Shown in pieces: positions 470-52,311 of a DNA stretch of 59,295 nucleotides (the stretch's first letter is position 1; each line of letters opens with the position of its first letter). Origin of the DNA: an uncultured Peptostreptococcaceae bacterium (GTDB taxonomy: Bacteria > Bacillota > Clostridia > Peptostreptococcales > BM714); the NCBI GenBank assembly GCA_964512505.1, contig CAZEHH010000003.1:1-59295 (forward strand). Direction: 5' to 3'. The position numbers were made by a program, and so were the translations under genes. The notes under the pieces are model-generated. The model did no database searches, was not told where the DNA came from, and saw nothing but the letters and a program-made list of their open reading frames with translations.

Positions 470-823
470 TGGTGGAGGCGGCGGGAATCGAACCCGCGTC
501 CGAAAGCACTTTACATTAAACTTCTCCGAGCGCAGTCATTGGTTTGTTTCTCGCTTCCGAAGCCGCTCAATGACAAGCTGCTTCATCTGCCAGTCCCAAT
601 TGTTTCAGCAAGAGGTCGGGACAACCCTCAGACTGGATCCCCGCATATCGACATCCTATTGCTGCGGCGGCGGGTAGGCTACAGCAGGATGAGCCGCATT
701 ACGCGGCTAAAGCTAATTTATTATCTGCGTTTATATTTTTTGCCAAGTTTTTTAATGTGGCACCCGACAAACCACAGCTCGCTATTCAATGCTCCATACC
801 CCCGTCGAAACCTGTACGCCCCC
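470..823 (-). ncRNA. ssrA: tmRNA (transfer-messenger RNA); tag reading frame 743..699 encodes AKNINADNKLALAA*
   Basis: The rc starts GGGGGCGTACAGGTTTCGACGGGGGTATGGAGC and ends GGACGCGGGTTCGATTCCCGCCGCCTCCACCA, an alanine-acceptor-like 5' end and a T-arm plus CCA. The internal frame GCA AAA AAT ATA AAC GCA GAT AAT AAA TTA GCT TTA GCC GCG TAA ends in the canonical ALAA. It is adjacent to smpB. Confidence 0.95.
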
Positions 824-1685: not shown

Positions 1686-3818
1686 TTATTTCAATTCCTC
1701 AAGCTCGAAGTCTATTTCACCCTGGGGCACGTCCACCCGAATCAAAAGCACTTTGACATCGTCTCCAAGCCTGTATCTTTTTCCTGTCCTTTCACCTGTA
1801 AACATCATGTTGTCTCCGTCATAATTGTAATAATCATCGTCAAGCGAAGCAACCCTAACCAATCCCTCTATGGTATTAGGCAGCTGGACAAAGAATCCGA
1901 AGGATGTTACGGAAGTGATTATTCCGTCGAAAACTTCTCCCACGTGGTGGCTCATATATTCCGCCTTCTTGAGATCGTCTGTGTCCCTTTCGGCTTCCAT
2001 AGCTATCCTTTCCCTTTCCGAAGACCTTTCGGCGGCATTTTTGACTATGGCAGACAATGCTTTTTTACGCCCTTCCGTAATGCCTCCTTTAACATATTCC
2101 TTAATTATTCTATGAATCTGCAAGTCGGGATATCTTCTTATTGGAGATGTGAAATGTGTATAGTACTTGGCCGCCAATCCGAAATGTCCAAGGTTGTCCT
2201 CGGAATAACGGGCTTGCTTCAAGGAGCGCAGCATCAATGTATGGACAAAAAGTTCTTCTTTGTGGCCTTTGACTTTTTCAAGCAGGTCTCTCAGCGCTTT
2301 CGGATGAACCTCTGTTCCAATTCCCTTTATGTGATATCCGAGATTATGGACTAGATTGTTGAAGTTTTCAAGTTTTTCAATGTCGGGCATTTCATGGACC
2401 CTGTATACGAACGGAATCTTGAGCCAGAAAATATGCTCTGCAACTGTCTCATTGCATATGAGCATGAAATCCTCAATGATTTTATGGGAAACTGTCCTTT
2501 CCTCCACGACCACATCAACCGCTTCTCGATCTTCATTCAGGATTACTTTCGCCTCCGGCAAATCGAAGTCGATCGCCCCTCTGTCTTCACGGTTCTTTCT
2601 TATGATCGAGCTGAGTTCCTTCATGTCCTCAAACATGTCCCTGATGTATTCATACTTTTCAAGCTCCGGACTCTTTTCATTTTCAAGCAAGGCAGTAACA
2701 TCTTTGTATGTCATTCTCTCTGAAGAATTGATTATGCTTTCGAAAATATCATACTTGACCAGTTTACCTTTTTTATCTATTTGCATTTCCACCGACAATG
2801 TCAATCTGTCGACTTTTGGATTCAAGCTGCATATGCCGTTTGAAAGCCTCTTTGGAAGCATTGGAATCACCCTGTCGGCAAGGTACACGCTCGTAGCCCT
2901 CTTAAGGGCTTCCTTGTCCATCTTTGAGCCTTCGCCGACATAATGGGTAACATCCGCTATGTGGACTCCCAGCAAGAAGTCCCCGTTTTCAAGTTTTTTT
3001 ATGGAAACCGCATCGTCAAGGTCCTTCGCGTCAGCTCCGTCAATCGTTACTATTTTTTCATTTCTAAGGTCTCTTCTTCCCTCAATTTCAGATTCGCTTA
3101 CAGCTTCCTCCACCCTCTCGGCCTCGTCAAGCACCTTTTTAGGGAATTCCTCGGGAAGCTGGTGGCGTCTTATTATTGAAAGTATGTCGGTTCCAATATC
3201 GTCTTTGTCTCCAAGGATTTCAACTATTTTTCCTTCAGGGTTTCTTCCCGGAGCTGGCCATGCGGTTATTGAAGCTACAACCTTATGCCCGGCTTTTGCA
3301 TTCATTGCCTCGGTTTTAGGTATGAAAACATCGGTATTCATTTTTTTGTCGTCAGGAACCACAAATCCAAAATTCTTGTTTTCCTCGAATGTTCCTACTA
3401 TAATCTCATTATTTCTTTTGCTTATTTTTACAATTTCACCTTCAGTCTTTTTATTGAATGCTCCCTTGCTTAATATTCGCGCAACCACCGTATCGCCATT
3501 CATCGCTCCGTTGATTTTGCTTGCCGGAATGAATATGTCTTCTTTCTCGGTCTTGGAAACAACAAATCCATATCCATTCTTAGTCATGTCGAGCTTGCCG
3601 ACAACCAAATTCAGCTTTTCAGGCAAAGCGTATTTATCATGCCTTGTCTTCATTATTCGGCCTTCCTCAACCAATTCATCCAAATATGTTATGAATTTCC
3701 CTATGTTCTTTCCCTTGACTTGAAATGTCTTTACGAGTTCGTCTTCCTTCATAGGTTTATATGCCTTTTCATTCATTAATTGCAAAATCATATCTTTTTC
3801 GATTAAAATGTCAATCAC
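1686..3818 (-). CDS. rnr: ribonuclease R
   Basis: 710 aa with the RNB catalytic region (DGADAKDLDDAVS) and a C-terminal S1 domain (GEVFDGIITSVTSFGFFVQL). The track start is a GTG with a poor RBS, so the exact start is uncertain. Confidence 0.93.
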   Translation of the reverse strand: MIDILIEKDMILQLMNEKAYKPMKEDELVKTFQVKGKNIGKFITYLDELVEEGRIMKTRHDKYALPEKLNLVVGKLDMTKNGYGFVVSKTEKEDIFIPASKINGAMNGDTVVARILSKGAFNKKTEGEIVKISKRNNEIIVGTFEENKNFGFVVPDDKKMNTDVFIPKTEAMNAKAGHKVVASITAWPAPGRNPEGKIVEILGDKDDIGTDILSIIRRHQLPEEFPKKVLDEAERVEEAVSESEIEGRRDLRNEKIVTIDGADAKDLDDAVSIKKLENGDFLLGVHIADVTHYVGEGSKMDKEALKRATSVYLADRVIPMLPKRLSNGICSLNPKVDRLTLSVEMQIDKKGKLVKYDIFESIINSSERMTYKDVTALLENEKSPELEKYEYIRDMFEDMKELSSIIRKNREDRGAIDFDLPEAKVILNEDREAVDVVVEERTVSHKIIEDFMLICNETVAEHIFWLKIPFVYRVHEMPDIEKLENFNNLVHNLGYHIKGIGTEVHPKALRDLLEKVKGHKEELFVHTLMLRSLKQARYSEDNLGHFGLAAKYYTHFTSPIRRYPDLQIHRIIKEYVKGGITEGRKKALSAIVKNAAERSSERERIAMEAERDTDDLKKAEYMSHHVGEVFDGIITSVTSFGFFVQLPNTIEGLVRVASLDDDYYNYDGDNMMFTGERTGKRYRLGDDVKVLLIRVDVPQGEIDFELEELK

Positions 3819-23837: not shown

Positions 23838-24017
23838 TCTCTGTCATAAGACCTGAGAGTTTCTCTTTATGTCTCCATAAAAATTGCCCCTTCGGTGCTC
23901 AAAATTCAAGCTTTTCAGAGACTTGTCCCTGTACGGTTCTTTTGCCTGAGAATTTTGTTTCAAACGGCAACGTTGAAACTTTTTCCTTCGGCGGTCCTTT
24001 CGAACTCTCTCCCGCAA
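23838..24017 (-). promoter_or_regulatory. tandem glycine riboswitch (two aptamers)
   Basis: The minus-strand RNA contains GCGGGAGAGAGUUCGAAAGGACCGCCGAAGGAAAAAG...UCUCAGGCAAAAGAACCG, then CAGGGACAAGUCUCUG...GAGCACCGAAGGGGCAA...ACUCUCAGGUCUUAUGACAGAG. The conserved CCGAAGG(G)GCAA and CUCAGG cores each occur twice. Confidence 0.85.
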
Positions 24018-24096
24018 AGTTCATCCAAATCGATTTATTAAATTATGATAGGAATATTTTATGTTCCGTTTCAAACTATTTGTTCTGTCTATGACT

Positions 24097-42940: not shown

Positions 42941-43077
42941 CCGATTCCCTCTTCTTCCTTTGTTTAATATGCTTCAATATATCACAATTAGGCTTTGCAT
43001 TGTAGAAATATCTTTGTCTTAGGTATATAATTACATTGGGAATAAAACTATTCAATACATACAAAGGAGGGGCTGAC

Positions 43078-44007
43078 ATGCCTTTAGTTACATCTACCGA
43101 TATGTTCAAGCGTGCATATTCCGAAAAATATGCCGTAGGAGCCTTTAATGTAAACAACATGGAAATAATTCAAGGGATCGTACAGGCGGCGGCAAAGGAA
43201 AATGCGCCGTTGATTCTCCAGGTATCTGCAGGCGCAAGAAAATATGCGCGACCTGTATACCTTAAAAAACTGGTTGAAGCGGCAATCGAGGATACGGGAC
43301 TCGACATCGTTCTTCATCTTGACCATGGTGAGGATTTTGAAATCTGCAAGCAATGCATAGACGACGGATTCACTTCTGTTATGATCGACGGTTCAAAACA
43401 TCCATTCGAGGAAAACATAGCTCTCACAAAACGAGTAGTCGACTACGCCCATGAAAAAGGAGTTGTCGTAGAGGCTGAATTGGGCAAACTTGCAGGCATA
43501 GAAGACAATATCAAGGTATCCGGAAGAAACGCCACATTCACAGACCCGGACGAGGCTGTTGAATTTGTCGAAAGGACAAAGGTTGATTCATTGGCCATAG
43601 CCATAGGAACAAGCCATGGAGCGTATAAGTTCAAAGGAGAACCCAAACTTGATTTTGAACGTCTGGAAACAATAACAAGGCTGCTTCCGGAATACCCGCT
43701 GGTTCTTCACGGTTCTTCGACTGTCATTCCCGAGTTTGTTCAAATGTGCAACGATTTCGGCGGAAACATTCCCGGAGCCAAGGGCGTTCCCGAGCCAATG
43801 CTCAGGCAGGCGTCAAAACTGGGTGTTTGCAAAATAAACATTGATACAGACCTGCGTTTGGCAATGACTGCCGCAATCCGAAAGTCATTCGTAGAAAACC
43901 CGGAAGTTTTCGATCCAAGAAAATACCTGGGCAAGGGAAGAACCGCCATAGAAGAAATGGTCGCCCATAAAATAAAGAATGTTTTGGGATGCAGCGGAAA
44001 AGCATAA
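43078..44007 (+). CDS. fba: class II fructose-1,6-bisphosphate aldolase (start at the ATG after AAAGGAGG; the track ORF starts at 43036)
   Basis: MPLVTSTDMFKRAYSEKYAVGAFNVNNME, LHLDHG, SVMIDGS and IGTSHGAYKF are present. Confidence 0.94.
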   Translation: MPLVTSTDMFKRAYSEKYAVGAFNVNNMEIIQGIVQAAAKENAPLILQVSAGARKYARPVYLKKLVEAAIEDTGLDIVLHLDHGEDFEICKQCIDDGFTSVMIDGSKHPFEENIALTKRVVDYAHEKGVVVEAELGKLAGIEDNIKVSGRNATFTDPDEAVEFVERTKVDSLAIAIGTSHGAYKFKGEPKLDFERLETITRLLPEYPLVLHGSSTVIPEFVQMCNDFGGNIPGAKGVPEPMLRQASKLGVCKINIDTDLRLAMTAAIRKSFVENPEVFDPRKYLGKGRTAIEEMVAHKIKNVLGCSGKA

Positions 44008-44068: not shown

Positions 44069-45517
44069 TCAGGCTTGCTTTGAATGCAAATCGTCTATTG
44101 TTTTTAGCAAAATCGCTTTTGCTATGCCCGGATCGGCTTTCCCGGATGTCTTCCTCATTATTTGACCTATGAGGGATTGCAGAGCCTTTTCTTTCCCTGA
44201 AAGGTAGTCTTCAACGACCTTTGGCATTTGTCCGACTGTTTCAAGCGCAAGGCTTGAAAGGTAGTCTTCATCCTTTATCAATCGCAAATCGTCTCTTTCG
44301 ATTATTAAATCAGGGGAAAGATTTTCTTTCCACATCTTTTCTATAACTTTTTTTGCCAACGTATTATTGATTGTTCCTAAGAAAATCAAGTCGGCAAGCC
44401 GTGCGAAATCATCACTTGTGAAAGGTATCCGGGCATCTTCGCCCTCTTTTGACAGAAGCCTTGTTATGTCTGTCATCAGTATATTTGCTGCCGTCTTCGG
44501 GGACTTGACTTTTTTTGCGGTCATGTCGAAATAATCCGAAAGATATTTGCTTGATACTAATTGTTCCGCATCATATACGGTCAACTGATAGTCTTTTATA
44601 TATTTGGCTTTTCGTTCATCCGGAAGTTCGGGCAGTGATTGCCTCATTTCTTCAACAAAAGAGTCTCCGATGATTATAGGCATCAAATCGGGATCCGGAA
44701 AATATCTGTAGTCGTGTGCGTCTTCCTTCGTTCTCATTGAAACCGACTTGCCCGCCGACTGCTCCCATCTTCTTGTTTCCTGAACTACGGCCCCACCCGA
44801 TTCAATCAATTTGATTTGACGCAAAGTTTCGTTTTCAATAGCCTTTGAAATGGAAACGAATGAATTCAGGTTTTTCATTTCCGTTCGTGTGCCAAGCTTA
44901 TTTTCGCCTTTTTTTCTTACAGAGAGGTTTACATCGCACCTGAGTGAGCCTTCGTTCATCCTGCAGTCTGAAACCCCGACATAAAGAAGAATTGCGCGAA
45001 GCTTCTGCACATACGCCTTTGCCTCCTCGGCGGAACGGATATCCGGCTCCGATACGATTTCTATCAGCGGAACCCCGCATCGGTTGTAATCAACCAGCGA
45101 ACCGCCTTCCGAGTCGTGGACAAGCTTTCCTGCATCCTCTTCGATATGAATTCTTGTTATTCCAATTCGCTTTGACTTTCCCTTGACTTCAATCTCTACA
45201 TGGCCGGAATGGCAAAGAGGCAAGTCGTATTGTGAAATTTGATATGCTTTGGGCGAATCGGGGTAAAAATAATTTTTCCTGTCCTGTTTTCCAATTCTCG
45301 TAATCTCGCATTTCGTCGCCAATCCCGAAAGAACAGCATACTCCACCACCTGTTCATTCAGAACAGGCAGTGAGCCTGGGAGTCCCAGGCATACCGGGCA
45401 ACATTGGGTGTTGGGCTTTGCTCCAAATGAAGTTCTGCATCCGCAAAATATCTTTGTTTCGGTTTTCAGCTCAACATGAACCTCAAGGCCAATCACAATT
45501 TCATAATCGTCATTCAT
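44069..45517 (-). CDS. gatB: Asp-tRNA(Asn)/Glu-tRNA(Gln) amidotransferase subunit B (ATG at 45517 overlaps the gatA stop in ATGAATGA)
   Basis: MNDDYEIVIGLEVHVEL... is the canonical GatB N-terminus. A YqeY-like C-terminal domain is present. The track ORF extension to 45583 lies inside gatA. Confidence 0.94.
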   Translation of the reverse strand: MNDDYEIVIGLEVHVELKTETKIFCGCRTSFGAKPNTQCCPVCLGLPGSLPVLNEQVVEYAVLSGLATKCEITRIGKQDRKNYFYPDSPKAYQISQYDLPLCHSGHVEIEVKGKSKRIGITRIHIEEDAGKLVHDSEGGSLVDYNRCGVPLIEIVSEPDIRSAEEAKAYVQKLRAILLYVGVSDCRMNEGSLRCDVNLSVRKKGENKLGTRTEMKNLNSFVSISKAIENETLRQIKLIESGGAVVQETRRWEQSAGKSVSMRTKEDAHDYRYFPDPDLMPIIIGDSFVEEMRQSLPELPDERKAKYIKDYQLTVYDAEQLVSSKYLSDYFDMTAKKVKSPKTAANILMTDITRLLSKEGEDARIPFTSDDFARLADLIFLGTINNTLAKKVIEKMWKENLSPDLIIERDDLRLIKDEDYLSSLALETVGQMPKVVEDYLSGKEKALQSLIGQIMRKTSGKADPGIAKAILLKTIDDLHSKQA

Positions 45518-46952
45518 CAAATCCACCTCTTTCATATGCATGAGCGGCACGCAATATTGACGCCTCGTCAAATGCTTTTCCAATCAACTGCATTCCGATA
45601 GGCAAGCCGTCTTTATCGAATCCGCAATTCATCGACAGTCCCGGCAAGCCCGCTATATTTACGGGGACTGTGTATATGTCACCCATGTACATTTCTATCG
45701 GGTTTTCACTTTTTGACCCAAACGGATATGCCGCAGTCGGAGCGGTAGGGGACAGGATAAGATCAAAAGTCTTGAACAAATTGTCAAACTCGGCTTTTAT
45801 CAAGCTTCTTACCTGTTGCGCCTTTTTATAATAGGCATCATAGTATCCCGAACTCAAAGCGTATGTCCCAAGCAATATTCTTCTTTTAACCTCTTTTCCA
45901 AAACCTTTGCTCCTTGCTTCCTTGTATAGTTCATCGAGGTTGAAATCCCCCTCGGGCCTGAATCCGTACTGTATGCCGTCAAATCGGGAAAGGTTTGACG
46001 ACGCCTCCGCAGATGAAATAATATAATACGCGGGAAGAGCATGTTTTACGCTCGATATTTCGACTTCTTCCACAGAAGCTCCCATTTTTCTAAAATTTTC
46101 AGCCGCCGCCAGAACCGCGCTTTTTACCTCGGGGGCGATCCCCTCGTCAAAGTAATTCTTAGGCAAAGCTATCCTCATACCCTTTACATCCCTGTCCAGA
46201 GATTCCATGAAATCTTCATCTTCCATTTTCACAGAAGTGGAATCCTTTTCGTCAAAACCGCACAAGACATTCATCACGTATGCCAGGTCGCTTGTGCTTC
46301 TTGCGAAAGGACCGATTTGGTCAAGAGACGAGGCAAAAGCTATCAATCCGTACCTCGAAATCCTTCCATACGTCGGCTTGAGCCCTAAAACTCCGCAAAA
46401 GCTAGCCGGCTGCCTTATTGACCCTCCTGTATCCGATCCCAATGCGAACAATGCCTGTTTTGATGCAACAGCCGCCGCCGACCCTCCCGAGCTTCCTCCC
46501 GGCACCCTGGAAAGGTCATGAGGATTCTTTGTGTTCTGGTAATAGGAATTCTCAGTGGTCGAACCCATTGCGAACTCATCCATGTTCAGTTTTCCAAGCA
46601 CTACGGCATCCGCATCCGAAAGAGTTTCAACAACGCTTGCATTGAACGGCGATTTATATTTTTCAAGCATTCTCGAACCGCAGGTGGTCGGCATTTCGAC
46701 AGTGCAAATATTGTCTTTCAGAGCCATCGGAATACCCGCAAGCACTCCAACATCCAACCCGTCAGATATTTTTTTATCTATCCTCTCGGATTTTTCCAAT
46801 GCTTTAAAATTGTCCACATATAAATAAGCCGATATATCCCTGTCCTTTTCATTTATGCGTGAAAGATACTCTTTTGTTATTTCAACTGAAGATATTTCTT
46901 TTGACAAGAGAGCCTTTCTCATTGTCATTATATCCATATCGATAATTTTCAT
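45510..46952 (-). CDS. gatA: Asp-tRNA(Asn)/Glu-tRNA(Gln) amidotransferase subunit A (ATG at 46952 after GGAGGGGTG)
   Basis: Amidase signature GGSSGGSAAAVA and LGSDTGGSIRQPASFCG. Confidence 0.95.
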   Translation of the reverse strand: MKIIDMDIMTMRKALLSKEISSVEITKEYLSRINEKDRDISAYLYVDNFKALEKSERIDKKISDGLDVGVLAGIPMALKDNICTVEMPTTCGSRMLEKYKSPFNASVVETLSDADAVVLGKLNMDEFAMGSTTENSYYQNTKNPHDLSRVPGGSSGGSAAAVASKQALFALGSDTGGSIRQPASFCGVLGLKPTYGRISRYGLIAFASSLDQIGPFARSTSDLAYVMNVLCGFDEKDSTSVKMEDEDFMESLDRDVKGMRIALPKNYFDEGIAPEVKSAVLAAAENFRKMGASVEEVEISSVKHALPAYYIISSAEASSNLSRFDGIQYGFRPEGDFNLDELYKEARSKGFGKEVKRRILLGTYALSSGYYDAYYKKAQQVRSLIKAEFDNLFKTFDLILSPTAPTAAYPFGSKSENPIEMYMGDIYTVPVNIAGLPGLSMNCGFDKDGLPIGMQLIGKAFDEASILRAAHAYERGGFDE

Positions 46953-46980: not shown

Positions 46981-49074
46981 CTATATGCTTTGTGGAACAT
47001 AAAAACAATTTTCCTTTTTAACCGGAGCGTTCTTTAAAACTTCTTCTACCGGCAAAGAAGGTTTTACTTGATCTTTTCTGAATACATTGTTGTTGTCAAT
47101 GATATAGGAAAGAGGGTCCACATCTCCCATTTCGACTGAATTCAATTGATTTGCAAAAGCGATTATGTCTGTCAGGTTTTTTGCCAGCTCGGCTCTTTCA
47201 TCATTTTCAACATTGAGTTTGGCAAGATTCGCGATGTGCTCAAGCATTTCTTCGGCTATCGCATCTTCCCTTCCCCCATCGCTAATTTCAGAAAGCGCGA
47301 CCAGCAAGTCGAGATCGATCAGCTGATTTGCGGAAACCTTTGAAGGTGTATCGACCATAGGGCAGGATGCATCCCTCAATTTGGGGAATGCTATGACTTC
47401 CCTTATGTTGGGGGCTCCCGCAATTATCATTATCAACCTGTCCAAACCGAATGCAAATCCTCCATGAGGCGGAGTTCCGTAATCGAATGCCTTAAGAAGA
47501 AATCCGAATCTTTCCTTTGCAACCGCAGGATCAAAACCAAGAAGCTCAAATATCTTTGACTGTATTTCGCTTTGATGGATTCTTATGCTTCCGCTTCCGA
47601 GCTCTATTCCGTTTAAAACCACATCATAGGATTTCGCCCTGACGTCCCCGGGTTTTGTCTTCAGAAGTTCAATGTCTTCATCGTTGGGCATAGTGAAAGG
47701 GTGATGCATCGCAATGTACCTTTTTTCGTCCTCTGACCATTCCAGCAAAGGAAAATCGGTTACAACGGCAAAAGCGAATTTGTTTTTATCCCTCAAACAC
47801 AAAATATCTGCAATTTCCAATCTTAAACTCCCGAGAATATTTCTTGCTTTTTCTTTATCGTCTGCGCTGAAAATAATCATGTCTCCCGGTTTGGCCTCTA
47901 ATTTCGCAATGATTCTTACCATGTCTTCTTCTGAAAAATATTTGGTAAGGACAGACCTCAAACTTCCATCAGGCTCAATTGCAATCCAAGCCATGCCTTT
48001 GCCTCCGAATTGAAATGCTTTTTCTGTAAGATGCTCTATTTGAGTCCTTGTAAGTTCATTCCCGCCTTTGATGCACAAGCCTTTTACTATGCCTCCACGA
48101 TCGACCACATTCCGGAAAACCTCAAAGCTGCATACCTTCATTATTTCGGTCAAGTCAACCATCGGCATGTCGAATCTTAAATCCGGCTTATCGAATCCAT
48201 ACTTGTCCATTGCTTCTTCATAGGTCATTCTCGTGAAAGGCGTCTTAATATCTATTCCCTTCGTCTTTTTCAAAATTTTCGCGAACAATTCTTCAAGCAT
48301 TCCTATTACATCCTCTTGATCGACAAAACTCATTTCCATGTCTATCTGGGTGAATTCAGGCTGACGGTCCGACCTTAGATCTTCGTCCCTGAAGCATTTT
48401 GCCACTTGATAATACTTGTCGACACCTGAAACCATAAGCAATTGCTTGTATATTTGGGGGGATTGCGGCAATGCATAAAAAGTCCCCTTTGAAACCCTGC
48501 TGGGAACAAGGTAATCCCTTGCCCCCTCCGGTGTGCTCTTTGTAAGAATAGGGGTTTCTATCTCCATGAAATCTTTTTCCTCGAAATAATTTCTTATTGA
48601 AGAAAGCACCGACTGCCTTGTTTTAAGATTGTTCAGCATTTCCGCCCTTCTCAAATCCAGATACCTGTACTTGAGCCTCAATTCTTCCCTCACTTCCACG
48701 TATTCGTCAAGAATGAAGGGAGGCGTCTTGGACTTGTTGAGAATGCGAAGCTCAGTTGCCCTCACATCTATTGTGCCTGTTGGCAGGTTCACGTTTACCG
48801 TTTCTTCGTCACGCCTTTCCAGCCTGCCTGAAACAGCTACGACATATTCATTCCTTATGGATTCGCCTTTTGCGAAATTTTCATTTCCAATGCTTCCCGC
48901 GTCTAATACAACCTGCACAATTCCGGAAACATCCCGCAAATCGATAAAAATTACTCCGCCAAGGTCCCTTCGTCTCTGCACCCATCCCATTACCGTAACA
49001 GTTTCCCCAATATTGTTCTCTGTCAGCTTCCCGCAATAGTGAGTTCTTTTCATACCCTTCATTGAATCGCCCAT
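46981..49074 (-). CDS. aspS: aspartyl-tRNA synthetase (bacterial type) fused in frame to a full-length GatC domain (residues ~603-697, nt 47268..46984)
   Basis: A single 697-aa ORF. The AspRS body (RTHYCGKL, class II motifs FRDEDLRSDRQPEFTQID, GGFAFGLDRL) ends near ...QLIDLDLLVALSE. It continues without a stop into DAIAEEMLEHIANLAKLNVENDERAELAKNLTDIIAFANQLNSV...NVFRKDQVKPSLPVEEVLKNAPVKKENCFYVPQSI, which is GatC-like end to end. Confidence 0.85.
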   Translation of the reverse strand: MGDSMKGMKRTHYCGKLTENNIGETVTVMGWVQRRRDLGGVIFIDLRDVSGIVQVVLDAGSIGNENFAKGESIRNEYVVAVSGRLERRDEETVNVNLPTGTIDVRATELRILNKSKTPPFILDEYVEVREELRLKYRYLDLRRAEMLNNLKTRQSVLSSIRNYFEEKDFMEIETPILTKSTPEGARDYLVPSRVSKGTFYALPQSPQIYKQLLMVSGVDKYYQVAKCFRDEDLRSDRQPEFTQIDMEMSFVDQEDVIGMLEELFAKILKKTKGIDIKTPFTRMTYEEAMDKYGFDKPDLRFDMPMVDLTEIMKVCSFEVFRNVVDRGGIVKGLCIKGGNELTRTQIEHLTEKAFQFGGKGMAWIAIEPDGSLRSVLTKYFSEEDMVRIIAKLEAKPGDMIIFSADDKEKARNILGSLRLEIADILCLRDKNKFAFAVVTDFPLLEWSEDEKRYIAMHHPFTMPNDEDIELLKTKPGDVRAKSYDVVLNGIELGSGSIRIHQSEIQSKIFELLGFDPAVAKERFGFLLKAFDYGTPPHGGFAFGLDRLIMIIAGAPNIREVIAFPKLRDASCPMVDTPSKVSANQLIDLDLLVALSEISDGGREDAIAEEMLEHIANLAKLNVENDERAELAKNLTDIIAFANQLNSVEMGDVDPLSYIIDNNNVFRKDQVKPSLPVEEVLKNAPVKKENCFYVPQSI

Positions 49075-49084
49075 ATTGTCACAC

Positions 49085-49390
49085 TCCTTTTCTTCAAAAA
49101 CAAAAAAACCCGGTCCTCTTTGTTTGTTTCAAAGGGACGCAGGTTTGTACTTGCGCGGTGCCACCCAATTTGGTCCATAGACCCGGCTCATTTCAATACA
49201 GACATGTTTTGTCGATATCTACCGGTTTAACGCACCGGTTACGGCTGAATCTACTCGCTTAATAGCTTTCGGTCAGCGACTCGGGGAGGTTCTTCATCCA
49301 TTAATCCGTACTGATTTTCCACCGTCATCAGCTCTCTATTACTACCAAAATGGACTACTCTTCCCTTCAACGCCATCATATTTATTATTT
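49085..49390 (-). promoter_or_regulatory. T-box leader (tRNA-sensing riboswitch) with terminator, controlling aspS::gatC-gatA-gatB
   Basis: The minus-strand RNA has these Stem I elements: AGAGUA, AGAGAG, and the distal CGGUGGAAAAUCAG. The T-box sequence AAAUUGGGUGGCACCGCG is the rc of 49155-49172. The terminator GUCCCUUUG...CAAAGAGGAC plus U7 is the rc of 49101-49138. Confidence 0.85.
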
Positions 49391-49396
49391 ATGAAA

Positions 49397-49425
49397 ATTT
49401 TAAACTATGATTAATATTTTGTCAA
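49397..49425 (-). promoter_or_regulatory. sigma-A promoter for the T-box operon
   Basis: The rc reads TTGACA-17 nt-TAAAAT. Confidence 0.65.
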
Positions 49426-49520: not shown

Positions 49521-50492
49521 CTATTTTGCCGTCATATCGACTATTATGTCCTCAATGTCTATTTCGCTTTCCAGCATGCCGTTTTCGATAAGAAATTCTT
49601 GCGTCTTAACCAAATCTTCCATATCGTTTTCGCTTATTTGCGGATTGAAATCGTACCATGCAAACATCGTCTTTACTGCTTCAACATCTATGTTGGTCTC
49701 TTCAGCCGTCATTGCGAAGGTATCGTCAGGATTGTCCTCCATATATTCAAGACTTTTTCTATGTACGTCCATATATGTCTGAACAACTTCGGGATACTTT
49801 TCAATCATTTCACCGCTTGTAGCGATGACGATTGTAGCGTCCAGAAGGCCTTCGCCAGTCTCGATAACCCTGTTTCCCGCTTCAAGAGCAATAGTAACCG
49901 CAGGTCCCGCAACCAATGCCGCATCTGCATTTCCGGAGGAAAGAGCTGCCATTCCGTCTCCTATTCCCATGTTTATGAATTCAACATCGTCCATTGCCAT
50001 TCCGTTTTCCACCAATGCCCCCAAAAGCAATTGATGAAGGATCGTCCCCTTTGGCCCAACTATTTTTTTCCCTTCCAAGTCTTTTATCCCGACTATCGAA
50101 TCATCCTTGGCCATGATTGTAAAAGCCTTTGGAGCCCTGCTGTAAATTCCGATTATTTTAACATCCACGCCATTCGCAGCGGCAAGAATTGCAGAAGTGC
50201 CTCCCAGGGCATTGCAGAAATCCAACGAGCCTGATGCAAGAGCTTCGGTCATCTTGGAACCTTGCGTTATTTCGGGAAATTCCACTTCCATTCCTTCTTC
50301 GCCAAAAGCATCTTCAAAGAGCAGTTTATTCTTTTCAACTATTGACGGCACATTAAGGGGCAATTTCACATATGAAATATTGACCTTTTCTTTTGCCGGA
50401 ACTTCAGTTGTTTCACCCGCACCGCTTGCGCAACCCGATAGAACAGCCATAACCATAAGCATTACCGCCATAAACAATGATAACTTTTTCAT
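49521..50492 (-). CDS. NMT1/THI5-like (SsuA/TauA-type) ABC substrate-binding lipoprotein (start at the ATG after AAAGGAGGG; the track ORF extends to 50522)
   Basis: MKKLSLFMAVMLMVMAVLSGC lipobox, with an SBP body resembling the aliphatic sulfonate/nitrate/HMP family. Confidence 0.82.
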   Translation of the reverse strand: MKKLSLFMAVMLMVMAVLSGCASGAGETTEVPAKEKVNISYVKLPLNVPSIVEKNKLLFEDAFGEEGMEVEFPEITQGSKMTEALASGSLDFCNALGGTSAILAAANGVDVKIIGIYSRAPKAFTIMAKDDSIVGIKDLEGKKIVGPKGTILHQLLLGALVENGMAMDDVEFINMGIGDGMAALSSGNADAALVAGPAVTIALEAGNRVIETGEGLLDATIVIATSGEMIEKYPEVVQTYMDVHRKSLEYMEDNPDDTFAMTAEETNIDVEAVKTMFAWYDFNPQISENDMEDLVKTQEFLIENGMLESEIDIEDIIVDMTAK

Positions 50493-50581
50493 AAAACCCT
50501 CCTTTTCCCCTGATAATTTCAATTCACACCAATTTTCATTCCGTTTTTAAATGTTCCTCCTCCTTTTCAGGTTAATGTTTT

Positions 50582-51346
50582 TTATTGCGCCACAGCTAAT
50601 TTATTCTTGGAATCCATGATGGTGTTCATGGCTTTTTCCCTTAGTCTTGAAAACTTAGCCGAGTGAATGTCCCTTGGATAGTTTTCCTTAATATCAATAT
50701 CTTCCATTATTTTTCCATCATCTATTACAATGAGTCTTTGACCCAGGTAAAGAGCCTCTTCAATATCATGTGTGACAAATACTATTGTTTTTTTGCACGA
50801 ATTGAAAATATGGATCAATTCGTCTTGCAGAATTTTTCTATTGTATGCGTCAAGCGCTCCCAAGGGCTCATCCATCAGTATTACATCCGGTTCGTAACAC
50901 AGGGTTCTTCCCAAAGCAACCCTTTGCGCCATGCCTCCGGATATCTGGCTCGGATATGCGTCTTTAAACCCATCCAAACCAAGGATTTCAAGATATTTGT
51001 TTACGGTGCTTTCGACTTTTCCACTGTCATTTTCGTTTTCGAGTGAAAAAGCCATGTTTTGTTTTACGGTCAACCACGGCATCAGGCGCGGTTCTTGGAA
51101 CACAATGGACATTTTGGGGCATTTCCCGCACTCTCTGCCATTTTCCATATACAGGACTTCTCCGCCGCTTTTTTCTTCAAGCCCGCATAAGATTCTCAAA
51201 AGCGTAGTTTTCCCGCAACCGCTCTTTCCCACAATAGTCACAAAGCTTTGTTTTTCCACAAAAAGATCCATGCCCTCAAAAACCGGCACTTCCTTTTTTT
51301 TAAGCATAAAAATCTTTGATAAGTTCCTGATTTTTATCCCTGTCAT
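50582..51346 (-). CDS. ABC transporter ATP-binding protein (NitT/TauT family)
   Basis: Walker A GKSGCGKTT, signature ISGGMAQRVAL, Walker B ILMDEP. The ATG at 51346 follows GGGAGGGTG. Confidence 0.9.
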   Translation of the reverse strand: MTGIKIRNLSKIFMLKKKEVPVFEGMDLFVEKQSFVTIVGKSGCGKTTLLRILCGLEEKSGGEVLYMENGRECGKCPKMSIVFQEPRLMPWLTVKQNMAFSLENENDSGKVESTVNKYLEILGLDGFKDAYPSQISGGMAQRVALGRTLCYEPDVILMDEPLGALDAYNRKILQDELIHIFNSCKKTIVFVTHDIEEALYLGQRLIVIDDGKIMEDIDIKENYPRDIHSAKFSRLREKAMNTIMDSKNKLAVAQ

Positions 51347-52091
51347 GATTTCCACCCTCCCACATCAAGAGTCTGTTGGTCGCTTTCAGGAAAAAATAAT
51401 CTATTCCGCAACCCAATGTGCCTATAACAATTATCCCTACAAAAATTATGTCTATCCTTGACAATTGTTCTGCTTCAATTATCATGTATCCAATGCCCGA
51501 AGAAGCCGCAATTAGTTCGGCTCCCATCAGAGACCTCCAACTGTATCCAAGTCCAAGCTGCATTCCCGCCAATATTGACGGTAGAGCCTGGGGAAGAATG
51601 ATTTTAATCAAGGTTTGCCATCTTGTGAACCCGTACGTCCTTCCGACTTCAACAAGCCTGTTGTCGCATCCTGAAATGCCGCTTACCGTATTTATGAATA
51701 TTGGGAAGAAAGTCGCTAAAATTATCACCGCGATTTTTGAGGTTTCACCGATTCCAAACCACAGTATGAGGAGCGGTATCATGGCTATGGGAGGTATGTG
51801 CCTCACAAACTCAAGAAAGGGAGACAGATATTCAAATGTTTTTTTGTTGAGTCCGACAAGCACCGCCATTGGAAATGCGATTAAAAAGGTTATGACAAAG
51901 CCTGAAAGAACCCTGAAAAGGCTTATGCCCAAATGTCTTATCAGTATCCCATTCTCAGCTAATGCCAATCCGGTGTTAATCACTTTGACCGGATGCGGAA
52001 CTATATATGTATTGAACCATTCCATTTCGGAACCTACCGCCCACAATAGCAAAATTGCCAGCGGAAAAACAATTCCCCTGTATTTTTTCAA
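51300..52091 (-). CDS. ABC transporter permease (NitT/TauT family); probable TTG start at 52091
   Basis: A six-TM BPD-type permease. The track ORF N-terminus (52092..52160) reads through an intrinsic terminator and has no RBS. AGGGAG (rc of 52101-52106) precedes the TTG and gives MKKYRGIVFPLAILLLW. Confidence 0.85.
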   Translation of the reverse strand: MKKYRGIVFPLAILLLWAVGSEMEWFNTYIVPHPVKVINTGLALAENGILIRHLGISLFRVLSGFVITFLIAFPMAVLVGLNKKTFEYLSPFLEFVRHIPPIAMIPLLILWFGIGETSKIAVIILATFFPIFINTVSGISGCDNRLVEVGRTYGFTRWQTLIKIILPQALPSILAGMQLGLGYSWRSLMGAELIAASSGIGYMIIEAEQLSRIDIIFVGIIVIGTLGCGIDYFFLKATNRLLMWEGGNHDRDKNQELIKDFYA

Positions 52092-52136
52092 AAATACTTT
52101 CTCCCTTCGATTCGCCTTATTTTTTTCAAATATAAA

Positions 52137-52156
52137 AGCCTTCCAAAAGGAAGGCT
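52137..52156 (-). terminator. intrinsic terminator inside the leader of the NMT1-type ABC operon
   Basis: The RNA reads AGCCUUCC-UUUU-GGAAGGCU followed by UUUAUAUUUG. Confidence 0.8.
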
Positions 52157-52311
52157 GCATGGTCTATTGTCGCAATGGCAAAATTCTTCGCCGTATACGC
52201 AAGGCTATGTCCTACTCCCTTTTCGAATCAGAATACTCTTTTTCGCAAGGTCATATTCTATTTTCCCAAATATGCGAAGAAGGCTCTCCGCAACTCTGGA
52301 ATATCAATTTC
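52157..52311 (-). promoter_or_regulatory. unclassified structured 5' leader (riboswitch- or attenuator-like) upstream of the leader terminator
   Basis: It lies between a near-consensus promoter and the terminator. Mutually exclusive pairings can be drawn (see findings). I recognise no match to any riboswitch class. Confidence 0.5.

Follow-up and report, generated by a model that had tools for sequence, protein, structure and literature searches.

A natural in-frame fusion of aspartyl-tRNA synthetase with GatC, conserved in Clostridia and encoded in an operon with a predicted T-box leader

Can an aspartyl-tRNA synthetase (AspRS) be joined in a single chain to GatC, a subunit of the GatCAB amidotransferase, and what would such a chain do? 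Transamidosomes are the textbook case of keeping mischarged Asp-tRNA-Asn from the ribosome. To our knowledge, all transamidosomes studied so far are non-covalent, and those with a GAD-type bacterial AspRS are dynamic and tRNA-dependent. The question is raised by a locus in 59,295 nucleotides of DNA from an uncultured Peptostreptococcaceae bacterium (hereafter, the window), in which an earlier note had read a complete AspRS running in frame into GatC and had proposed a hard-wired transamidosome component.

The reading frame in question (46981..49074, reverse strand) encodes 697 amino acids, uninterrupted by a stop codon or frameshift. Profile scores assign an OB-fold anticodon-binding domain, a class II catalytic core and the bacterial GAD insertion to residues 1-595 (47290..49074, reverse strand), with Pfam matches to tRNA_anti-codon (PF01336) at residues 26-109, tRNA-synt_2 (PF00152) at 130-566 and GAD (PF02938) at 320-414. 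This AspRS is complete and of bacterial type over residues ~8-595; it scores 784.5 bits against NCBIfam TIGR00459 aspS_bact (residues 8-589; cut-off 373.85) and 844.3 bits against NF001750 (cut-off 443), passing the curated equivalog cut-off. The catalytic and Asp-binding motifs QSPQ (204-207), FRDEDLR (228-234), GSGSIRI (493-499) and GLDR (543-546) are invariant in a 21-sequence alignment. A GatC module then occupies about residues 606-697 and is followed by the stop codon (together 46981..47259, reverse strand). Its match to TIGR00135 extends over residues ~606-695 and model positions 1-90 of 93, at 70.2 bits within the fusion, rising to 75.3 bits for the isolated module (cut-off 47.1), and its match to Pfam GatC (PF02686) over residues 623-693, at 58 bits (cut-off 23); P654, N663, R666, D668, A683, V693 and P694 are invariant across the family alignment. 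Both halves thus lie above curated family cut-offs. We conclude that the AspRS-GatC chain is a genuine in-frame fusion.

An apparent fusion may also come from an assembly artefact, and a missed stop codon or a frameshift was the concern that the earlier note itself had raised. A first search with a fragment spanning the junction returned short fragments only, and we therefore repeated it with the full-length protein. The architecture is shared by the best 120 full-length homologues (55-97% identity), whose lengths are about 690-720 amino acids, and a Pfam GatC match is recorded in 119 of them. At the DNA level, a match across the junction in one open frame was found in at least 80 species-representative genomes (80 of the 80 returned); these matches cover query residues 1 to 133-136, with identity down to about 30%. 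Since the same frame recurs in the 120 best homologues and in 80 independent genomes, the missed-stop and frameshift worry is removed, and we rejected an assembly artefact on the same grounds, the 120 proteins representing as many protein clusters. The carriers belong to three orders of Clostridia (Eubacteriales, Peptostreptococcales and Christensenellales), some of them represented by isolate genomes; among the cultured carriers are Acetoanaerobium sticklandii (DSM 519), Fusibacter paucivorans (DSM 12116) and several other Fusibacter species, such as F. bizertensis and F. ferrireducens. Carriers with complete or isolate genomes also include Acetoanaerobium pronyense (DSM 27512), Acidaminobacter hydrogenoformans (DSM 2784), Guopingia tenuis, Ligaoa zhengdingensis and Allofournierella massiliensis. 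No reversion to unfused genes was seen among the loci returned from the 80 species genomes.

The genes that follow are those of the remaining amidotransferase subunits. The stop codon of the fusion (46983..46981) is separated by a 28-nt gap from the ATG of gatA (46952..46950), which is preceded by AGGAGG 7 nt upstream; gatA (45510..46952, reverse strand; 480 amino acids) matches Amidase (PF01425) at 527 bits. The longest ORF of gatB (44069..45583, reverse strand) matches GatB_N (PF02934) at 414 bits and GatB_Yqey (PF02637) at 128.6 bits; it overlaps the end of gatA, and the true start of gatB probably lies a few codons inside this ORF. These coordinates agree with the spacing and overlap first described for the locus. 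The absence of a separate gatC was borne out as well: tblastn detected none in the operon or in the rest of the 59-kb window, and in all related loci with enough downstream sequence (among the 80 loci) gatA starts 3-145 nt past the stop codon of the fusion and is followed by gatB, so that these operons have no separate gatC either. No paralogues of AspRS, AsnRS or GatC were found in 665 kb of sequence flanking the related loci, each flank being up to 10 kb long; these flanks and the 59-kb window also gave neither AsnRS nor asparagine synthetase. A search for stand-alone GatC gave 13 matches, whose contexts were ordinary gatCAB operons without aspS, or an orphan gatC; an unfused, ancestor-like operon was not recovered among them. 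If a second, free GatC is present in a genome, the amidotransferase subunits GatA and GatB could escape the tether.

Upstream of the fusion lies a leader that the earlier note's account did not include. A T-box (RF00230; 49130..49379, reverse strand; T-box sequence GGGUGGCACCGCG) was identified at 107.8 bits (Rfam gathering score 93) over the full model, positions 1-219. The predicted attenuator, a terminator hairpin with a U-run (UUUUUUUGUUUUU; 49098..49146, reverse strand; −18.4 kcal/mol, z = −3.2), overlaps the 3' half of the antiterminator. A sigma-70-type promoter-like site, TTGACA-17-TAAAAT (49397..49425, reverse strand), is positioned 18 nt before the T-box begins; it is a consensus match only, at 11 of 12 positions. 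We set the specifier position by aligning 62 homologous leaders. In the window the specifier loop reads GAAGAACC, in which a GAA overlaps the Asn codon AAC. Of 69 related loci, 62 have a T-box motif and seven lack it; 60 of the 62 leaders, including that of the window, have AAC at the aligned specifier position, and none has GAC (Asp). The overlapping GAA (Glu) occurs in 57 of the 62, and in three leaders its G is replaced by A. A T-box with an AAC specifier suggests that the operon is switched on by uncharged tRNA-Asn. Judged from these leaders, the tie to tRNA-dependent Asn synthesis appears stronger than could be seen when the fusion was first described.

The specifier codons also bear on whether the AspRS half may be a general, discriminating housekeeping enzyme to which GatC was attached for co-regulation, with the amidotransferase serving mainly to form Gln-tRNA-Gln. 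By its NCBIfam matches the synthetase half is an ordinary bacterial AspRS, from whose sequence tRNA specificity is not readable here; GatCAB is needed for Gln in most of the Firmicutes genomes surveyed in 2008, which are without GlnRS (PMC2494555); and the GAA found in most leaders would suit a link to Glu. However, control by tRNA-Asn charging is not expected of an AspRS that serves tRNA-Asp only, the Asn codon is retained in all but two of the leaders without ever giving way to the Asp codon, and it is the G of GAA that is lost in three. We therefore regard a housekeeping role as very improbable. From the operon context and the Asn codon of the T-box, the AspRS is presumably non-discriminating.

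We next consider the junction itself. The linker of the window protein, about residues 596-605 (LSEISDGGRED; 47260..47289, reverse strand), falls in non-conserved, gapped alignment columns. The eight residues ISDGGRED originally given as the linker are roughly right for this sequence, but in the family as a whole the conserved positions of AspRS end at L588 and the nearly invariant ones of GatC begin at L617; the ~28 residues that separate them are variable and gapped. A purine-rich run is present at the junction, as reported, where it codes for DGGRED, linker residues that are not conserved. The suggestion that it is a relic of a gatC ribosome-binding site did not hold up. The run ends 17 nt before the sole nearby in-frame ATG, and this codon, Met614 (EEMLEH), is not conserved among relatives in the alignment. 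Using a 31-codon window around the GatC boundary, we found an in-frame start with a Shine-Dalgarno (SD) match in 17 of 81 loci; for the start of gatA the figure is 76 of 81. Hence, we rejected a relic ribosome-binding site or an internal GatC start as a conserved feature.

The same observations bear on whether two separate proteins are produced, with GatC either translated on its own from an internal start where the domains meet or cut free within the linker by a protease, to leave an ordinary AspRS and an ordinary GatCAB. Met614 near the start of GatC, with a purine-rich run upstream, might permit this, and in a Mycobacterium smegmatis strain with a GatC-GatA fusion less than ~10% of GatA was found at the unfused size (PMC7541841). 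Against it, the 17-nt distance is outside normal SD spacing, the Met codon is not retained, boundary starts are far rarer than starts at gatA, and no conserved cleavage motif was found in the aligned linkers. Separate products are thus improbable, and we infer that the fusion would be translated as one uncleaved chain of ~79 kDa.

An AlphaFold monomer model of the fusion, computed with the 21-sequence alignment as input, is of medium quality (pLDDT 71). Confidence falls below a pLDDT of 50 over residues 575-606, the GatC part is modelled as two helices only, and GatC is not docked on AspRS; the junction and most of GatC have no confident order. The low-confidence junction and the two-helix GatC are consistent with a flexible tether. 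Within GatCAB, GatC runs along the GatA-GatB interface as an unstructured belt (PMC4027206), and its C-terminal hairpin binds GatB (PMC7541841).

Together, these features are probably best read as an operon for tRNA-dependent asparagine formation, in which AspRS and GatC form one chain and a tRNA-independent complex channels Asp-tRNA-Asn. The order would be promoter, tRNA-Asn-sensing T-box attenuator, aspS::gatC, gatA and gatB. When uncharged tRNA-Asn accumulates, it would base-pair to the leader at the AAC specifier and at the UGGC bulge, so stabilizing the antiterminator and allowing the operon to be transcribed. The first gene would yield a single 697-residue polypeptide, a presumably non-discriminating AspRS with a C-terminal GatC on a flexible linker. 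The AspRS-GatC orientation would leave free the GatB-binding C-terminal hairpin of the GatC belt, so that one GatA·GatB should be recruited per AspRS subunit; the expected complex, (AspRS-GatC)2(GatA)2(GatB)2, would stay assembled in the absence of tRNA. The Asp-tRNA-Asn that AspRS produces would then pass directly to the tethered amidotransferase and be converted to Asn-tRNA-Asn. The arrangement may have arisen from an aspS-gatC-gatA-gatB operon like that described in Clostridium acetobutylicum, once aspS had lost its stop codon. On comparative grounds, the reading of the locus as a hard-wired transamidosome component appears well supported.

Comparison with known systems indicates which parts of this arrangement are shared and which are not. 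In the C. acetobutylicum operon aspS and gatC are presumably separate genes, whereas in the window they form a single ORF. [quoted passage not shown] The Asn-transamidosome of Pseudomonas aeruginosa (PDB 4WJ3/4WJ4) combines a bacterial-type GAD AspRS with GatA, GatB and GatC, as does the window, and its chain 4wj3_M is among the best PDB matches of the window AspRS (583.9 bits). In Helicobacter pylori, AspRS and GatCAB do not associate without tRNA-Asn, and the complex is dynamic, with AspRS leaving after aspartylation (PMC3367201). The partners are separate proteins in the known P. aeruginosa and H. pylori transamidosomes, whereas in the window GatC is covalently attached to AspRS, so that any complex would be tRNA-independent. 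By analogy with the dynamic H. pylori complex, a permanent tether might not simply copy the known mechanism. GatC-like proteins are extended or fused in two other cases. Yeast mitochondrial GatF is a GatC-like belt with a large N-terminal addition that still assembles the enzyme, but this extension binds GatA and, unlike the AspRS of the window, is not a synthetase (PMC4027206). The laboratory-selected M. smegmatis GatC-GatA fusion, which raised mistranslation and was modelled to disrupt the enzyme, is joined at the GatC C-terminus, whereas in the window it is the GatC N-terminus that is fused; in a non-systematic look through ~500 gatCAB gene sets, its authors saw no natural gatC-gatA fusion (PMC7541841).

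The AspRS-GatC architecture is not confined to Clostridia. A curated NCBIfam model, NF009460 (PRK12820), is named [quoted passage not shown] and describes the same AspRS-then-GatC chain; residues 10-693 of the window protein align to model positions 22-718 of 723. The window fusion scores 637.7 bits against this model, below the cut-off of 1379, and is thus not a member; its clostridial relatives score 621-665 bits, and a protein from Desulfobacterales (P0287) scores 1188 bits, making it a near-member. Separately, a representative search with the 175-aa junction gave mostly fragments and no usable count, full-length fusions apparently being represented by other cluster members; P0287 was the sole lead that it provided. 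The order of fusion, gatA and gatB at the P0287 locus is that of the window, but the Desulfobacterales lineage, unlike the window, has no T-box. The window AspRS matches the Desulfobacterales fusion AspRS at 555.6 bits (41.6% identity) and unfused AspRSs at 564-600 bits, and the window GatC part had no match in the Desulfobacterales fusion lineage. That the window AspRS is no closer to the other fusion than to unfused enzymes suggests recurrent selection for the fusion.

This comparison is relevant to whether the fusion arose by accident as the operon was compacted and has simply been tolerated, loss of the aspS stop codon bringing co-expression and 1:1 dosage, harmless extra mass at the GatC N-terminus and no benefit in channelling or kinetics. 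Several observations are in keeping with an accident: an N-terminal extension of a GatC-like subunit is tolerated in yeast GatF (PMC4027206), the linker is short, variable and unconserved, GatC is undocked on AspRS in the AlphaFold2 model, and T-box-aspS-gatCAB operons, presumably unfused, function in C. acetobutylicum. However, the fusion has been kept in at least 80 species of three Clostridia orders, at junction identities down to ~30% and without reversion among the loci returned, and the same fusion occurs in the unrelated AspRS lineage of Desulfobacterales. This retention, with the second lineage, points to selection rather than drift, and we consider an accident unlikely, if less so than the readings rejected above. 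An accidental origin is nonetheless compatible with a transamidosome, as the two readings are not mutually exclusive. More tentatively, we suggest that the tether could make a constitutive, tRNA-independent Asn-transamidosome, (AspRS-GatC)2(GatA·GatB)2, that arose at least twice independently (in Clostridia and in Desulfobacterales) and contains the sole GatC of many carriers; we regard this fuller proposal as possible rather than probable. If true, every amidotransferase molecule would be physically committed to AspRS, a natural experiment in obligatory substrate channelling; Gln-tRNA-Gln formation in the same cells would be constrained, and the release-and-rebind kinetics of the H. pylori type would perhaps be replaced.

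The earlier note had suspected that the fusion was uncharacterised. A literature search found no paper describing an AspRS-GatC fusion, and the gene goes unmentioned in the C. sticklandii genome and review papers; no PDB chain with this architecture was found. The novelty was overstated, however, as the architecture is present in NF009460/PRK12820 and in UniProt, where entries such as E3PQZ9 of A. sticklandii carry the name "Multifunctional fusion protein". The parts, the regulation and the fused architecture are all on record, and this is no new kind of system. Database names are inconsistent, with "aspartate--tRNA ligase", "GatC, partial" and "Multifunctional fusion protein" all in use for proteins of this family, and surveys that seek a stand-alone gatC would wrongly score the carriers as gatC-less. 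For the biology of tRNA-dependent Asn formation, a natural single-chain AspRS-GatC offers a simple test of whether permanent proximity helps fidelity or rate. It may also give a view of a 2:2:2 assembly without tRNA and of how Asn and Gln formation make use of one amidotransferase, and the cultivable carriers would provide a ready natural model for substrate channelling.

The aspS::gatC gene at window positions 46981..49074 (-) is listed as a single ORF of 697 aa, and inspection of the sequence at the proposed AspRS-GatC junction revealed neither a stop codon nor a change of frame. Pfam places tRNA_anti-codon at residues 26-109, tRNA-synt_2 at 130-566, the bacterial GAD insertion at 320-414 and GatC at 623-693 (58 bits; cut-off 23). 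The NCBIfam equivalogs for bacterial AspRS match the protein (NF001750, 844 bits; TIGR00459, 784.5 bits; residues 8-591), as does the GatC equivalog TIGR00135, which aligns model positions 1-90 of 93 to residues 606-695 (70.2 bits; cut-off 47.1). The in-frame fusion proposed in the earlier note is thus borne out by one ORF with matches to both parts, and its C-terminal part passes both GatC profiles. The gatA ATG lies at 46952, preceded by AGGAGG and 28 nt past the fusion stop, and the end of gatA is overlapped by gatB, both as claimed. We found no separate gatC between the fusion and gatA/gatB or elsewhere in the 59-kb window, as had also been stated. An ABC transporter (NMT1-type binding protein, ATPase and permease; 49521..52160 (-)) lies upstream of the operon and a convergent class II fructose-bisphosphate aldolase gene (43036..44007 (+)) downstream, a synteny shared by three 92%-identical contigs (L001-L003). 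The window also carries a tmRNA gene at 470..823 (-) (RF00023, 188.8 bits; tag peptide ADNKLALAA by ARAGORN) and tandem glycine riboswitch aptamers at 23838..23921 and 23924..24024 (-) (RF00504, 40.4 and 62.6 bits).

The best 120 full-length homologues from a 5.8-billion-protein collection are 55-97% identical and about 676-771 aa long; a Pfam GatC match is recorded in 119, the exception being cluster P0234, which still has a divergent GatC-like tail. In a further scan, an alignment restricted to the junction (last AspRS helix, linker and GatC) was run against a single genome for each species. Of 211 stretches matching one narrow peptide pattern, 192 encode relatives; the 80 relative loci listed all match from query residue 1 to 133-136. 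Each of these 80 keeps the junction within a single open frame, in an ORF of 690-760 aa unless truncated by a contig end. Together with the homologues, this comparison rules out an assembly artefact or missed stop. Isolates carrying the junction include Fusibacter paucivorans DSM 12116, F. bizertensis, F. ferrireducens, Acetoanaerobium pronyense DSM 27512, Acidaminobacter hydrogenoformans DSM 2784, Allofournierella massiliensis, Guopingia tenuis and Ligaoa zhengdingensis; cluster membership adds Acetoanaerobium sticklandii ATCC 12662 and A. noterae. The nearest named relative is 'Clostridiales bacterium BM714' (junction 97% identical). These carriers belong to Eubacteriales, Peptostreptococcales and Christensenellales, all of the class Clostridia, and the search for long AspRSs with GatC that the earlier note had suggested extends the architecture to three orders of Clostridia, and to Desulfobacterales. 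P0234 and P0240 (698 aa) form a Clostridia fusion subclade with a strongly diverged GatC module: P0234 scores 41.9 bits with TIGR00135, under the 47.1 cut-off, and has no recorded Pfam GatC match, and P0240 scores only 20 bits against the window GatC. GatC function may be decaying or changing in the subclade.

In an alignment of 21 sequences, the AspRS body, including the catalytic motifs, is highly conserved up to Q584 and L588. Beyond these positions the sequences are variable and gapped; conserved residues reappear in the first GatC helix (L617, L634) and then at P654, N663, R666, D668, A683 and V693-P694. An AlphaFold2 model of the fusion (mean pLDDT 71) is confident over the AspRS core, with low confidence over residues 575-606 and most of the GatC tail past two short helices (603-617 and 624-644). 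Both bacterial GatC and yeast GatF have been described as belts, unstructured and wound around the interface of GatA and GatB (PMC4027206); the modelled tail is as would be expected if its ordering needs wrapping around GatA/GatB.

Separate production of GatC is unlikely. The purine-rich run at the junction, previously suggested to be a relic gatC ribosome-binding site, encodes non-conserved linker residues and ends 17 nt before the in-frame ATG of EEMLEH, a Met not conserved in relatives. Requiring an in-frame ATG, GTG or TTG with a Shine-Dalgarno match of at least 5 nt in a 31-codon window, we detected a candidate internal start at the boundary in 17 of 81 loci, versus 76 of 81 at the gatA start; the relic interpretation is not upheld. 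No second AspRS, AsnRS, asparagine synthetase or second gatCAB was found in the window or in locus flanks of up to 10 kb. Among stand-alone GatCs, the closest that we recovered are 37-52% identical and occur in ordinary gatCAB operons or alone, so that the presumed unfused ancestor was not among them. One of them, the 114-aa P0423 (L085 5001..5345; 52% identical to the fused module), adjoins a fur-family gene with no gatA after it on a 6-kb contig; P0423 may have arisen by fission, or may be a second, free GatC.

Wherever a related locus has sufficient downstream sequence, gatA starts 3-145 nt past the fusion stop and is followed by gatB. A complete T-box leader (49130..49379 (-); Rfam 107.8 bits, gathering score 93) sits directly 5' of the fusion start codon, preceded by a near-consensus promoter-like site (TTGACA-17-TAAAAT) and ending in a terminator hairpin (-18.4 kcal/mol) with a U-run that overlaps the antiterminator 3' half. 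The unit is therefore T-box, aspS::gatC, gatA, gatB, and its T-box regulation is what the first reading of the sequence missed. Among the 69 loci (68 related ones and the window) whose upstream sequence sufficed, 62 had the T-box sequence 66-258 nt ahead of the approximate gene start. Alignment of these leaders fixed the position of the specifier loop, which reads (G/A)A(A/C)-(G/A)-AAC-N in 60 of 62, is exactly GAAGAACA in 40, and is GAAGAACC in the window. The invariant triplet is the Asn codon AAC; in 57 leaders a G just before it gives an overlapping GAA (Glu) codon, and three have A there instead. This pattern agrees with the transamidation operon of C. acetobutylicum as represented in papers that cite the work on it. 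Two Oscillospiraceae leaders (L069, L071) keep T-box sequence with an unalignable Stem I and no AAC at the specifier position. Neither motif search nor Rfam detected a T-box before the fusion gene in the other seven loci (L014, L020, L031, L063, L067, L070 and L080), Acidaminobacter genomes among them; L080 has a lysine riboswitch nearby (2017..2185 (-)), on the strand opposite the fusion gene.

An equivalog named 'bifunctional aspartyl-tRNA synthetase/aspartyl/glutamyl-tRNA amidotransferase subunit C' already exists in NCBIfam as NF009460 (PRK12820). The window protein aligns to it end to end with 637.7 bits against a cut-off of 1379, and other Clostridia fusions score 621-665 bits; P0287, a 710-aa fusion from Desulfobacterales MAGs, scores 1188 bits. 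P0287 shares the Clostridia gene order (fusion, gatA, gatB), and no T-box was found at its locus. On one phmmer scale, unfused AspRSs in the PDB score higher with the window AspRS part (564-600 bits) than P0287 does (555.6 bits), and the window GatC part does not match P0287; hence we infer that the Clostridia and Desulfobacterales fusions arose independently. P0287 has no recorded Pfam GatC match, yet NF009460 aligns over its full length. At its locus (L084 6001..10867), gatA is just 414 aa and two ORFs are called for gatB (GatB_N, 272 aa; GatB_Yqey, 215 aa), which could reflect a split gene or a frameshift.

We propose that uncharged tRNA-Asn would turn the operon on, that aspS::gatC would be translated as a single chain, and that its GatC tail would draw in GatA·GatB, placing an amidotransferase on both subunits of the AspRS dimer. 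In H. pylori, the bacterial-type Asn-transamidosome assembles only with tRNA-Asn, and its AspRS is freed after aspartylation (PMC3367201); in contrast, the covalent link would make association tRNA-independent and fix the stoichiometry. Joining the N-terminal end of GatC makes sense: the C-terminal β-hairpin of GatC contacts GatB, and a laboratory fusion made at this C-terminal end, GatC-GatA in M. smegmatis, increased mistranslation, with modelled disruption of the enzyme (PMC7541841). N-terminal additions, in contrast, are tolerated in GatF (PMC4027206). Judging by the operon context and the T-box codon, the AspRS is probably non-discriminating, and the fusion would form a complex with GatA/GatB. 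The fused architecture is absent from PDB chains, whose AspRSs do not exceed 620 aa and align no further than about residue 595.

Full-text literature searches found no paper describing a natural AspRS-GatC fusion, which is likewise absent from the C. sticklandii genome paper and from a later review; a non-systematic look in a mycobacterial study, limited to gatC-gatA fusions, found none (PMC7541841). The suggestion that the fusion was uncharacterised stands as regards the papers searched, but the architecture is already curated in databases, as NF009460 and as the UniProt 'Multifunctional fusion protein' E3PQZ9. The pathway and the regulatory logic are both already known. The AspRS-GatC fusions of Clostridia are a large family that the existing NCBIfam equivalog does not include, linked to the known Asn T-box operon.
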